A DNA stretch of 45,508 nucleotides from Patescibacteria group bacterium (lineage in GTDB: Bacteria > Patescibacteriota > Patescibacteriia > UBA11705 > JABHMO01). Each line of letters begins with the position of its first letter. The first letter of the stretch is position 1. The translations under genes and the position numbers were made by a program. The stretch lies in the NCBI GenBank assembly GCA_018818405.1, contig JAHIRY010000040.1, forward strand, positions 1-45,508, read 5' to 3'. Positions 30,875 to 34,325 of this stretch are shown piece after piece. The notes beneath the pieces were generated by a model. That model was not told the DNA's origin. It worked only from the letters and a program-made list of their open reading frames with translations, and ran no database searches.

Positions 30875-30910
30875 CGCGAGCCGGACATTCCGGACTCGCG
30901 CTTTTTTTTT
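30875..30910. terminator. Terminator between convergent genes
   Basis: CGCGAG-CCGGA-CAT-TCCGG-A-CTCGCG followed by T run. Confidence 0.75.
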
Positions 30911-32714
30911 ATTCATTTACTCTTTCTTTGTTTTCTCGCACAACCTTTTCAATGAATTCCGTGAATGGAATCGCGCCCAAATCGCCTTTGCCGTGCCGGC
31001 GGACAGCTACTGTTTTGTCTGTCTCTTCTTTTTCTCCGACAACCAAGAGATACGGAACTTTTTCTTTTTCACCGTTTCTTATTTTCTTTCCCAGTGATTC
31101 ATCATCATTATCGAGAACAACGCGAATTTCATTTTTCTTCAATTCCCGCGTTATTTCCTCTGCGTATTGATTGAACTTTTCCGAAATTGGCAGGACTTTC
31201 ACCTGAACCGGAGACAGCCACAGCGGAAAAGCGCCGGCATAATGTTCGATCAGCAAACCGATGAATCTTTCGAACGAACCCATGAGCGCGCGATGCAGCA
31301 TATACGGCCGTTCTTCTTTTCCTTCCGAATTGATATAGGTCATGTCAAATCTTTCCGGCAAATTGAAATCAAATTGAAGAGTGGAACATTGCCATTCTCG
31401 GCCGAGCGCGTCTTTAACTTTGTAATCCAGCTTCGGTCCGTAGAACGCGGCTTCACCTATTTCTTTTGAATATTCGATTCCCAGTTCAGAGGCGACTTTT
31501 TCCATTACAGCTTCAGTGAATTCCCAGCCTTCATCATTGCCCGTGTATTTTTCCTTGTTCGCCGGATCGCGCAATGACAAATAAATTTTATAATCGGAAA
31601 AACCGAATGAATCGAAAATATATTTTATAAAATTCGCCACTCGCTTTAATTCTTCCGCCACTTGCTCTCTCGTGCAAATGATATGCGCGTCATCCTGAGT
31701 AAATCCGCGAACGCGAGTCAATCCGGACAATTCGCCGGATTTTTCATAACGATAAACAGTGCCGCATTCCGCCCAGCGCAGAGGAAGATCTTTGTAAGAA
31801 TGCATTTCGGATTTGTAAATTTCAACATGAAACGGACAATTCATCGGCTTTAGCAAATATTCTTCTTTCGGTTTGTCCGAACCGGCGGAAGTTTGCTGTT
31901 CTTTCAATGATTTGCTCACTTCGATTGACGGATACATGCTCTCATTGTAAAAATTCCAATGTCCGGAAGTTTCCCAAAGCGCGCGACTGCCGATGTGCGG
32001 ACCGCGCACCAATTCATAACCGTTTTCCAGATGCGCTTTGTACCAAAAATCTTCAATCACCCGCCAGAGCATCGCGCCTTTCGGCTTCCACAGAGGAAGA
32101 CCGAGGCCGACGACCGGATCGAGAACAAACAAATCTTTTCCAATAACGCGATGATCTCTTTTTTCCGCTTCTTCCAAAAGATTCAAATAATTTTCCAATT
32201 CTTCATTCGTTTCAAATGCCAAGCCGTAAATTCTCTGAAGCATTTTGTTTTTTTCATCGCCCCGCCAATACGCGCCCGCCAACTTTTGCAATTTAAATGC
32301 GCCGATCTCGCCGGTTGACTCAACATGAGGACCGCGGCACATGTCTTCGAAAACAACATTGCCGTCTTTGTCGATATTTTTGTAAAAACTTATTTCCGTT
32401 TCTCCTTCGCGCGCCAGATCGTCAATCATTTCATGTTTATATTCATTGCCTTTAACTTTTTCCAAAGCTTCGGAAATCGGCAATTTATATTGTTCAAATC
32501 GGTATTTTGCTTTTACAATATTTTTCATTTCTTTTTCCAGCCGTTTCAAATCTCCCGGAGCAAAAGATTCTTCACCCAGATCAAAATCATAATAGAATCC
32601 ATTGTCAATCGCCGGTCCGATAGTTAATTTCGCGTTCGGATAAAATTTCAATACAGCCTGCGCCAAAATGTGCGAAAGAGAATGGCGCATGATTGTTAAT
32701 TTTTCATTGTCCAT
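30909..32714 (-). CDS. thrS: Threonine--tRNA ligase (no N-terminal TGS domain)
   Basis: RHSLSH, DMCRGPHV, RDHR, KPMNCPFH, LTRVRGFTQDDAH, GSFERF; start MDNEK at 32714. Confidence 0.97.
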   Translation of the reverse strand: MDNEKLTIMRHSLSHILAQAVLKFYPNAKLTIGPAIDNGFYYDFDLGEESFAPGDLKRLEKEMKNIVKAKYRFEQYKLPISEALEKVKGNEYKHEMIDDLAREGETEISFYKNIDKDGNVVFEDMCRGPHVESTGEIGAFKLQKLAGAYWRGDEKNKMLQRIYGLAFETNEELENYLNLLEEAEKRDHRVIGKDLFVLDPVVGLGLPLWKPKGAMLWRVIEDFWYKAHLENGYELVRGPHIGSRALWETSGHWNFYNESMYPSIEVSKSLKEQQTSAGSDKPKEEYLLKPMNCPFHVEIYKSEMHSYKDLPLRWAECGTVYRYEKSGELSGLTRVRGFTQDDAHIICTREQVAEELKRVANFIKYIFDSFGFSDYKIYLSLRDPANKEKYTGNDEGWEFTEAVMEKVASELGIEYSKEIGEAAFYGPKLDYKVKDALGREWQCSTLQFDFNLPERFDMTYINSEGKEERPYMLHRALMGSFERFIGLLIEHYAGAFPLWLSPVQVKVLPISEKFNQYAEEITRELKKNEIRVVLDNDDESLGKKIRNGEKEKVPYLLVVGEKEETDKTVAVRRHGKGDLGAIPFTEFIEKVVRENKERVNE

Positions 32715-32895
32715 ATTTTTATAAGCGAGAAAGCGTAAAAGCGAGATAAGTTTACCCCGCCCGCGGCGGGGCGAGTTAAGCATATGCAGCGGCGGATTGC
32801 ATCCGCCGAAACGTCGTGTCGCGACGCAAAATCTTGCGCCCAATTCTAAATAGTCTTAACGCATTTTATTTGCTTTGACGCATTCGTTTATTAAT

Positions 32896-33130
32896 AAAAA
32901 AACCAAGGTCATAAAAATTAACCTTGGGGTCCCACCAGACAGCCTGCCGTCCATTTTATCTTTCGAAATTAATAAAATCTGACGGCCTGCCGTCCGCAGC
33001 TCCGCAGAGCGCAGGACGGTTCCACCCAAGTTTCTCTGAAATTTTTCAGAGACACTCTTTTCGCCAAAACTTAGTTTAGCTCTTCGCTAAAATCCGAGTC
33101 GGATAATCGGTTGGTGGCCGATTCAATCGT
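32896..33130 (-). promoter_or_regulatory. T-box riboswitch (Thr specifier ACC) with intrinsic terminator
   Basis: T-box AGAGAAACTTGGGTGGAACCG; antiterminator CTTGGG/CCCAAG and GTCC/GGAC flanking the UGGAACC bulge; overlapping terminator CCAAGGT..ACCTTGG-T7; stem ATCGG-CCACCAA-CCGAT. Confidence 0.85.
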
Positions 33131-33144
33131 TTTGAACTGTTTGC

Positions 33145-33172
33145 ATTATATCAAAATCAAATAAATCGTCAA
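33145..33172 (-). promoter_or_regulatory. Sigma70 promoter of the thrS leader
   Basis: TTGACG-N16-TATAAT on the minus strand. Confidence 0.75.
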
Positions 33173-33179
33173 TTATCAA

Positions 33180-34325
33180 TCATTTACTGGGACGAACTAT
33201 TGTAATGACGATATGATCTTTCAAGCTGGGAATTCTTTTCACCCAGAACGGCGAAAGCGAAATTTTCACTGATTCGACGGAATCGAAATTCGCCAAATAC
33301 AATTCCACGCCTTTTGTGCTCAAGCCGGCGATTTTTTCCTTGTCGAAAATAGCATTGTCTTCCTTTATGATATTTTCTCCTTCAACATGCACTCGCACAT
33401 TGGCTGTCTTTGTATCAACATTGTAATTTTGAACATTGTAGGAAAAATTATTCATATTCAAACTCAACAACTGCTGGCCGTCCGGCACGATTGACTGCAA
33501 ACGACTGCCCGCAAGTTCGAGAATTTTCTCCTGATCCAGCGCAATGGCGGAAATTTTCAGTTTCATTTCAACCGTAAATTTATCCTTTACCGATTCCACC
33601 GGATCGGAAACATTTTCTGACACAACTTCTTTTGCCACAATGATTACCGCGTAATTTTTTCCGGAAACTTGCAGATTGAAATCTTCGAGCGCTTTTGCTT
33701 TCAAGTCTTCTTCCAATTTTTCTTTTGCGCGCGCGATGTCAGCGGCTTTTATCACGCTCACGGAAACGCCCGTGCTCTTCAAGACCGATTGGCTCTCCGC
33801 GTAAACCAGCGATTGCATGCTCTGAGACAATCCGGGAATAATGAAATTCGTTGCCGGCAATTCTTCAAATGAAGTCGGATCATCCGCGTAAACATCTGCT
33901 TCGACCTGTCCGTTGGCCGGAATATCCACGCGATCGGTCAGTCGCAATAAAACGCCGTTCGGATCCAGCAGTCTGGTGGTTTTTACCAGCGCTTGGCTGT
34001 CCCCTCTTTTATTGTAAACAATGACTTTTCCAATGGAATTTCCTGAAAGTCCTTTTGAACCGGTGGCTGTTTCCTCGAGCGAGCCGTCAACCTCTGTTTC
34101 CATCAATTTCGCCTGTAGCGAACCGGATCCGCCTCCGCCGTCAGCCTCCACGTCAGCGACAAATTCGGTTTCAAGCTTCGTCACGCGCGGAGTCACTTCG
34201 ATCACCGCTTTGCTCGCTGAAAAATAAAAAATTATTACAACCAACAAAACCGTGATAACGACAAAACCCAATATCATTTTTTTATAGCCCTCGCTCACGC
34301 CAGGGTGATTGCTTCGTATATACAT
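33180..34325 (-). CDS. Baseplate J-like domain membrane-anchored protein (common in CPR)
   Basis: N-terminal TM; GKVIVYN...Q.LVKTTRL, VYAD..., F.IPGL pattern. Confidence 0.6.
   Translation of the reverse strand: MYIRSNHPGVSEGYKKMILGFVVITVLLVVIIFYFSASKAVIEVTPRVTKLETEFVADVEADGGGGSGSLQAKLMETEVDGSLEETATGSKGLSGNSIGKVIVYNKRGDSQALVKTTRLLDPNGVLLRLTDRVDIPANGQVEADVYADDPTSFEELPATNFIIPGLSQSMQSLVYAESQSVLKSTGVSVSVIKAADIARAKEKLEEDLKAKALEDFNLQVSGKNYAVIIVAKEVVSENVSDPVESVKDKFTVEMKLKISAIALDQEKILELAGSRLQSIVPDGQQLLSLNMNNFSYNVQNYNVDTKTANVRVHVEGENIIKEDNAIFDKEKIAGLSTKGVELYLANFDSVESVKISLSPFWVKRIPSLKDHIVITIVRPSK

Follow-up and report, generated by a model that had tools for sequence, protein, structure and literature searches.

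A probable tRNA-Thr-sensing T-box riboswitch with a reduced decoding module upstream of thrS in a Patescibacteria genome

Four classes of T-box leaders have been published (PMC10482949). Class I leaders have a long stem I together with stem II, class II leaders, which are glycine-specific, have a long stem I and no stem II, and the leaders of classes III and IV have a short or intermediate stem I, require stem II and are mostly translational (PMC10482949). Specifiers placed in an apical loop (class III) have been linked to stem II and mostly to translation, and a long stem I to transcription (PMC10482949, PMC7583486). As a rule, transcriptional control by a T-box requires the stem I platform, and a truncated stem I hardly binds tRNA unless stem II is present (PMC7583486). 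The short-stem T-boxes of class III in turn need the S-turn of stem II for tRNA binding (PMC7583486, PMC10482949). In structural and kinetic studies, the platform serves to capture tRNA quickly and the S-turn to keep the codon-anticodon helix in place.

We analysed a stretch of 45,508 nucleotides from a Patescibacteria group bacterium, hereafter called the window, in which a leader lies within the 465 nt that separate thrS from an unannotated ORF (33180-34325, minus strand). Most probably, this leader is a T-box riboswitch that senses tRNA-Thr through a reduced decoding module and attenuates the transcription of thrS. We base this reading on the sequence elements of the leader, their conservation and covariation, the match with the tRNA-Thr of the genome and the presence of mutually exclusive helices. 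The features are as follows, from 5′ to 3′ of the transcript.

33145 to 33172, minus strand: sigma-70-type promoter, TTGACG, 16-nt spacer and (TG)TATAAT; 11 of 12 consensus matches, extended -10
33129 to 33134, minus strand: P0 5′ strand CAAAAC, pairs with 33070-33065 and closes the four-way junction; in the minimum-energy fold
33124 to 33128, minus strand: junction strand GAUUG, occupies the position of the canonical K-turn UGA
33105 to 33123, minus strand: ultrashort stem I, AAUCGG/CCGAUU, 6 bp with the 7-nt apical loop CCACCAA; a 19-nt hairpin
33092 to 33104, minus strand: hairpin A, AUCCG ACU CGGAU, at the stem II position, no S-turn
33075 to 33091, minus strand: hairpin B, UUUAGC GAAGA GCUAAA; in the fold
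33071 to 33074, minus strand: junction strand CUAA, directly 5′ of the P0 3′ strand
33065 to 33070, minus strand: P0 3′ strand GUUUUG, from pairing, covariation and RNAalifold
33031 to 33057, minus strand: first part of the discriminator, with the purine string GAGUG (33057-33053), stem III (33052-33033) and AA (33032-33031)
33018 to 33030, minus strand: A1 5′ strand CUUGGG (33030-33025) and T-box bulge UGGAACC (33024-33018)
32929 to 33017, minus strand: helix A2, 89 nt, closed by 7 bp of GUCCUGC (33017-33011) and GUGGGAC (32935-32929)
32923 to 32928, minus strand: A1 3′ strand CCCAAG, common to the terminator 5′ strand
32896 to 32927, minus strand: intrinsic terminator, 9-bp stem, 7-nt loop and U7
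32717 to 32895, minus strand: spacer between terminator and thrS, largely REP-like GC-rich hairpin repeats, outside the T-box
30909 to 32714, minus strand: thrS, threonine--tRNA ligase, 601 aa, ATG at 32714 and stop at 30909; the gene that the leader would regulate

Transcription probably starts near 33138, and comparable promoters were observed directly 5′ of P0 in the relatives of the family. The original prediction, made from the sequence of the window, had placed a Thr codon matching thrS in a tiny terminal loop after the promoter; the codon ACC is indeed there, at 33115-33113 of the minus strand, and is followed in the loop by AA, in keeping with the purine that comes after T-box specifiers. 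P0, a long-range helix, closes the four-way junction that makes up the decoding part; elbow platform, S-turn and F-box are all missing from it, and hairpins A and B are plain helices. Motif inspection found neither AGUA nor an F-box (CCGUUA) in the leader, so that the earlier remark on a missing AGUA S-turn holds and extends to the F-box.

In the discriminator, stem III is formed by UCUCUGAA/UUCAGAGA (33052-33033), and the succession GAGUG, stem III, AA fits the RRRxG-stem III-AA motif (PMC7583486). Helix A1 consists of CUUGGG (33030-33025) paired with CCCAAG (32928-32923), and the 7-nt bulge UGGAACC sits between A1 and A2 (GUCCUGC/GUGGGAC). The terminator stem, CCAAGGUUA/UGACCUUGG (32927-32903), is followed by the U7 tract (32902-32896) and overlaps the 3′ strand of A1 by 5 nt (CCAAG), which makes the two helices mutually exclusive. 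Thus, the stem III, the bulge and the alternative antiterminator and terminator helices of the original prediction were all found where it had put them. The 75-nt insert in A2, the two hairpins enclosed by P0 in what had been called the stem II region and the REP-like spacer of ~180 nt are additions to it.

We compared this layout with those of the described systems. The class III ileS leaders of Nocardia farcinica and Mycobacterium tuberculosis (Sherwood et al. 2015, via PMC7583486 and PMC10482949) resemble the window leader in having a short stem I without an elbow platform, an apical specifier and a discriminator core made of stem III with purines, a UGGN bulge, A1 and A2; insertions in A2 have also been reported for them (PMC7583486, PMC10482949). 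They need, however, an S-turn stem II and a IIA/B pseudoknot, whereas the window leader has neither and instead carries two plain hairpins beside stem I inside P0. Their apical loop is 5-6 nt long (PMC10482949) and that of the window 7 nt. In addition, class III leaders mostly sequester a ribosome-binding site and respond to Ile, whereas an intrinsic terminator and a Thr codon are present in the window.

With the class II glyQS leader of Bacillus subtilis, the window leader shares transcription attenuation and the absence of an S-turn stem II, but the long stem I of glyQS, with its K-turn and internal specifier loop, is missing, as is the distal platform, a double T-loop stacking on the tRNA elbow. 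The class I leaders covered by RF00230, such as those of B. subtilis thrS and tyrS and a Ruminiclostridium thrS leader (L178), share with it the gene class, an ACC-type specifier, the T-box sequence and the antiterminator/terminator pair. Leaders of classes I and II have a long stem I with a distal platform (AG bulge and distal loop), in contrast to the 19-nt hairpin with a codon in its terminal loop that is seen here. As for the K-turn (GA motif) of these two classes, the RF00230 alignment puts GAUUG in the GA-motif region, where it aligns with UGA, but two hairpins lie between it and the CUAA strand, and the 3′ side lacks a GA. It is possible that the GAUUG/CUAA junction adopts a k-junction-like fold.

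The absence of the distal platform of stem I and of the S-turn of stem II counts against reading the leader as a T-box. Judged from its discriminator and its predicted logic, it is nevertheless a T-box, and one that stands outside all four described classes. In the T-box literature that we examined, the combination of a Thr codon in a tiny loop with a transcription terminator was not described, and we found no publication linking T-boxes with Patescibacteria, CPR or Parcubacteria.

The folding calculations were in line with this layout. The 256-nt leader folds with a z-score of -5.56 against shuffled sequences, and its minimum-energy fold includes P0, stem I, hairpins A and B, stem III and the terminator. 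The terminator state was calculated at -91.0 kcal/mol and the forced antiterminator state at -83.1 kcal/mol. The calculated advantage of ~8 kcal/mol for the terminator would give an arrangement that is off by default, as expected for a switch.

No match was obtained at this locus with Rfam at the gathering thresholds. The original prediction had named two T-box models for an Infernal search. RF00230 gave a weak match (21.4 bits against a gathering threshold of 93, E = 0.013) in which the part comprising stem III and the T-box was aligned at high posterior probability, and the second, ileS-type model is not shown in Rfam 15. The score of RF00230 is low because a ~70-nt junction replaces stem I, stem II and the pseudoknot. 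In TBDB, the class II model was applied only to Actinobacteria and to truncated-stem-I matches of the class I (RF00230) model (PMC7778990). Leaders of the present kind would therefore escape TBDB, as outside Actinobacteria the short-stem model needs prior detection by RF00230.

Within the 1.06-Mb genome, RF00230 and a word search found this leader as the only convincing T-box-like one. An RF00230 candidate on contig C47 (13.9 bits) was dropped, as it lies inside a coding region, and four other genomic occurrences of GGUGGNACC had no T-box context by eye and no RF00230 or R1 match (R1 is described below). At the locus itself, the T-box-like word CUGGUGGGACC (about 32937-32927) was considered as a tandem T-box and rejected: it is the 3′ strand of A2 plus A1 and has no helices of its own, and its UGGG would require C73. 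C0465 and mir-3167, obtained with Rfam at an E-value threshold, were chance matches to hairpins of the leader.

Next, we consider the distribution of the leader. The starting sample was the 700 nt upstream of thrS in 40 relatives. In 16 of these 40 regions GGGUGGNACC was present, 15 times as GGGUGGAACC and once as GGGUGGGACC, and wherever upstream sequence was in view these leaders had the same layout, with ACC in the loop of a short hairpin. Four of the 16 relatives have a dtd-thrS operon downstream of the leader. From ten hand-segmented leaders, the window leader being one of the ten seeds, we built a covariance model of 120 positions, R1. When the whole genome is searched with this model, the window leader scores 58.7 bits (E about 1e-11), a value to be read with the window's place among the seeds in mind. 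At E <= 0.01, R1 has matches in 198 of the 401 genomes sampled from the class of the window genome, with a single match in almost every case. Downstream lies either thrS or a short operon that precedes thrS and contains dtd, a GNAT-like gene or a membrane ORF. In the other classes of the phylum, 21 of ~237 genomes match at E <= 1e-4, more weakly.

Among 80 public thrS loci, 12 matched R1 above 30 bits, in records labelled Patescibacteria, Parcubacteria, Falkowbacteria, Paceibacterota and Saccharibacteria; the exceptions were one labelled 'bacterium' and one binned Gammaproteobacteria. Clostridia thrS loci gave only partial matches (22-27 bits), and the Ruminiclostridium leader mentioned above is a canonical T-box (108 bits).

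Pair counts were made on A3, an alignment of 60 native leaders to R1. Standard pairs occupy 93.8% of the cells, against about 50% when the partners are slid by one column, and compensatory changes occur at 34 of 35 base pairs; these counts lean towards R1, as the alignment was fitted to that model with the window among its seeds, and the slide control and an independent RNAalifold run lessen this bias without removing it. RNAalifold on A3 predicted the same helices, including five of the six P0 pairs unaided. In the 60 leaders, P0 is paired in 86% of cells and all six of its pairs covary, and stem I is paired in 97.5% with compensatory changes at all six pairs. The modelled pairs of hairpin A (4/4) and hairpin B (4/4) covary, as do those of stem III (5/5), and A1 also covaries, for example as GCUAGA/UCUAGC in L024.

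Conservation of the single-stranded positions was high in the same 60 leaders. The counts were G55 A58 U59 U59 G60 for GAUUG and C55 U52 A56 A59 for CUAA; the AA after stem III is present in all 60, each position of the UGGAACC bulge in 58-60, and the apical loop has the consensus Y-U-A-C-C-A-A. The window leader retains all the positions conserved in the family, namely GAUUG, the loop ACC-AA, CUAA, GAGUG, AA and UGGAACC. In one close relative (L044; G010:C15:80950-81500) we observed the stem I module with ACC ~170 nt 5′ of the discriminator, with an AT-rich insertion between the two.

We then examined the match between the leader and the tRNAs. Of the 60 thrS-family leaders, 58 have ACC as the loop triplet and two have ACA, both being Thr codons. 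The two genomes with an ACA specifier (G094 and G329) are not short of tRNA-Thr(GGU); both encode the GGU and UGU isoacceptors, and this test was neutral. The window genome encodes a tRNA-Thr(GGU) on contig C8 (5122-5197) that ends in U73-CCA, and all its three tRNA-Thr genes carry U73, which matches UGGA. Since U73 is limited to 7 of the 44 tRNAs of the genome (Thr, Gly and Cys), ACC and UGGA together single out tRNA-Thr(GGU).

Other T-boxes of the class were found as second R1 matches and as sub-threshold RF00230 matches, and the downstream genes were named by the best NCBIfam or Pfam match on N-terminal fragments. Their apical codons are as follows.

valS: apical codon GUC (L086, L096, L105, L097)
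glyS: apical codon GGC (L061, L063, L068-70, L098, L104)
aspS: apical codon GAC (L113, L106)
aspS: apical codon AAC (L102, L072)
cysteine synthase/CBS-like gene: apical codon UGC (L101)
aminotransferase: apical codon GAC (L093)

The loop codon therefore tracks the gene, the point that the original prediction had proposed to check: it is a Thr codon in 60 of 60 thrS-family leaders, and GUC, GGC, GAC or AAC and UGC stand before valS, glyS, aspS and the cysteine synthase-like gene, respectively. A failure of the loop triplet to track the identity of the synthetase, looked for across the class, was not observed. The last base of UGGN in the bulge varies in step with the discriminator base of the tRNA. 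The Thr, Gly and Cys leaders have UGGA, those for Val have UGGU, and those for Asp have UGGC or UGGU; in the window genome the tRNAs for Thr, Gly and Cys carry U73, those for Val A73 and those for Asp G73.

These data bear on the possibility that ThrRS itself binds the stem I hairpin, which would then be an operator mimicking tRNA, in the manner of the autoregulation of E. coli thrS. A short stem with a 7-nt loop, shaped like an anticodon arm and lying upstream of thrS, would fit such an operator. The loop, however, carries the codon ACC and no Thr anticodon (GGU, UGU or CGU), lies more than 390 nt from the thrS start codon and is always paired with a complete T-box discriminator whose UGGA matches U73, and the equivalent hairpins before valS, glyS and aspS bear the codons of those amino acids. 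We rejected an operator of the E. coli type, as the loop is a codon rather than an anticodon, and give ThrRS binding hardly any credence.

In two of the aspS T-boxes, L072 (G105) and L102 (G038), both of family f17, the loop of the short stem I holds AAC, an Asn codon. This suggests that their aspS encodes a non-discriminating AspRS and would be regulated through tRNA-Asn. The valS and aspS T-boxes of this class (for example L086, L096 and L113) are like the window leader in presenting the apical codon on a short stem I and in being followed by an intrinsic terminator; they differ in keeping a K-turn (for example GGC-GUUUGA...GA-GCC), an S-turn stem II (GAA/AGUAGAA) and an F-box (CCCGUUA), none of which is present in the thrS leaders. 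Six leaders of valS and aspS (L086, L096, L105, L109, L112 and L113) combine class III architecture with intrinsic terminators, a mismatch with the rule that this class is mostly translational. Some thrS leaders of the class (L092, L100, L090) have a canonical long stem I. Several T-box builds thus exist side by side in this lineage.

For the window leader, tRNA binding, the sensing of charging and read-through are what we infer from these features. Transcription would begin near 33138, and the first ~70 nt would fold as the four-way junction of P0, stem I and the two small hairpins, displaying ACC in a 7-nt apical loop that resembles an anticodon loop. The anticodon of tRNA-Thr(GGU) would pair with ACC, and the 3′ end of the uncharged tRNA, UCCA, would pair with UGGA of the bulge. 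A1 would then hold CCCAAG, the terminator (32927-32903) would be blocked and the polymerase would continue into thrS. With the tRNA charged or absent, the more stable terminator would form and transcription would stop at the U7 tract.

The leader could instead bind tRNA-Thr and act mainly on mRNA stability, on translation or on a polymerase pause, the hairpin with the U tract not being a regulated terminator. The short-stem T-boxes described so far are mostly translational (PMC10482949), and in six relatives the U tracts are interrupted and the genes begin 27-142 nt past the antiterminator. On the other hand, the terminator of the window is strong (9 bp and U7), the thrS ATG lies ~180 nt beyond it with no recognisable ribosome-binding site that the switch could sequester, and every family member inspected has a terminator-like hairpin overlapping A1, with a U-rich tract 3′ of it, rather than a sequestered ribosome-binding site. 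These last points sustain the earlier claim that an ultrashort stem I with an apical specifier is coupled to a transcription terminator, and they make a regulatory step at another level very unlikely in our view.

We lean towards regarding the thrS leaders of this class as a distinct and undescribed T-box architecture, a fifth one beside classes I-IV: a terminating leader with a ~70-nt junction closed by P0 and a Y-U-ACC-A-A loop, and with no platform, S-turn or pseudoknot. If this is true, the loop-loop contact and the discriminator would suffice for co-transcriptional sensing of tRNA, contrary to the view that a transcriptional T-box cannot capture its tRNA fast enough without the stem I platform. 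T-boxes are a model system for RNA-RNA recognition, and a family that would drive a terminator with neither platform nor S-turn, present in roughly half of the genomes sampled from one CPR class, would test the published rules directly. The leader would also offer a very small tRNA-sensing module for engineering.

The original prediction had called CPR a group with few known riboswitches. This lineage is not poor in T-boxes as such, since canonical long-stem T-boxes also occur in the class, with 6 of 151 genomes above the Rfam cut-off. Standard annotation (Rfam, TBDB) misses leaders like the present one and so undercounts the riboswitches of CPR genomes.

The copy in the window differs from most of its relatives in A2. 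The closing helix of A2 surrounds a branched insert of 75 nt (33010-32936), composed of a small hairpin and a long imperfect hairpin, so that the element measures 89 nt here against about 16-27 nt in most relatives. One relative, G010, has an intermediate insert (A2 of about 58 nt) with similar sequence at its start. BLAST against the genome found no other copy of the insert, and a mobile repeat was ruled out on this ground. Within the insert (32971-32994, minus strand), a 5-bp GC hairpin, GACGG CAGG CCGUC, is followed by the U-rich AGAUUUUAUU and looks terminator-like. We speculate that the polymerase might pause here, or that the hairpin might act as a weak premature terminator inside the antiterminator, and that the insert might thereby add decision time. 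A lineage-specific insert in the antiterminator/terminator domain of an otherwise functional T-box is also known from stem Sa of the staphylococcal glyS T-boxes (PMC9177973, PMC4574755), which differs from the present insert in position, sequence and lineage. The bottom pair of A2 is G33017-C32929, in place of the G.U wobble that is found in 29 of 60 relatives and that has been described as a proposed steric sensor of T-boxes. This G-C pair and the 75-nt insert, which could disturb folding, are further points against the T-box reading.

The spacer of ~180 nt between the terminator and the thrS ATG contains two REP-like copies (32840-32791 and 32780-32739, minus strand). BLAST found 6 further copies of at least 32 nt in the genome, on contigs C14, C2, C45, C48 and C17, together with many partial matches; the identity of these 6 copies is 85-98%, and in 5 it reaches at least 88%. 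These hairpins look like REP- or MITE-like elements, and as dispersed repeats they are explained without a regulatory role. A promoter scan of the spacer found no promoter-like site between the terminator and thrS. As thrS is also single-copy in the genome, read-through of the terminator appears to be necessary for its expression.

The enlarged A2, its G-C pair and the REP-like repeats that have invaded the leader might also mean that the window holds the decaying relic of a T-box, in which the insertions have disabled switching and thrS owes its expression to leaky read-through or to a spacer promoter that escaped recognition. The patchy distribution among close relatives, about half of the class having no R1 match, would also agree with decay. 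Against this, all the positions conserved in the family are intact, the insert is closed by the 7-bp A2 helix and folds as a self-contained branch, a related insert has been retained in G010, the repeats lie 3′ of the terminator and hence outside the switch, and the spacer scan gave no promoter-like site. We consider decay unlikely and prefer the reading of a working tRNA-Thr-sensing T-box.

The gene downstream is well identified as thrS: its product scores 714 bits with TIGR00418 (cut-off 384) and has the Pfam domains tRNA_SAD, class II core and anticodon-binding domain. The protein lacks an N-terminal TGS domain, and its editing domain (tRNA_SAD) follows soon after the start. In this genome, the one T-box-like leader that was found would thus govern an aminoacyl-tRNA synthetase gene present as a single copy. 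Immediately 5′ of the thrS promoter lies an ORF of 381 aa (33180-34325, minus strand), which has no Pfam match.

Two further groups of leaders were noted in the class. Two T-box-like leaders with a variant core (AGGAUGGGACCGCG), L080 (G111) and L081 (G141), stand before a gene that by eye resembles a PNP/UDP-family nucleoside phosphorylase gene, which is an unusual T-box target. Seven leaders (L103 of G065, L110 of G063, L107 of G047, and L075, L094, L095 and L111) have in common GGGUUGGGC (UGG, Trp) and a conserved F-box-like block, and stand before trpS-like genes as well as low-molecular-weight phosphatase-like and other genes.
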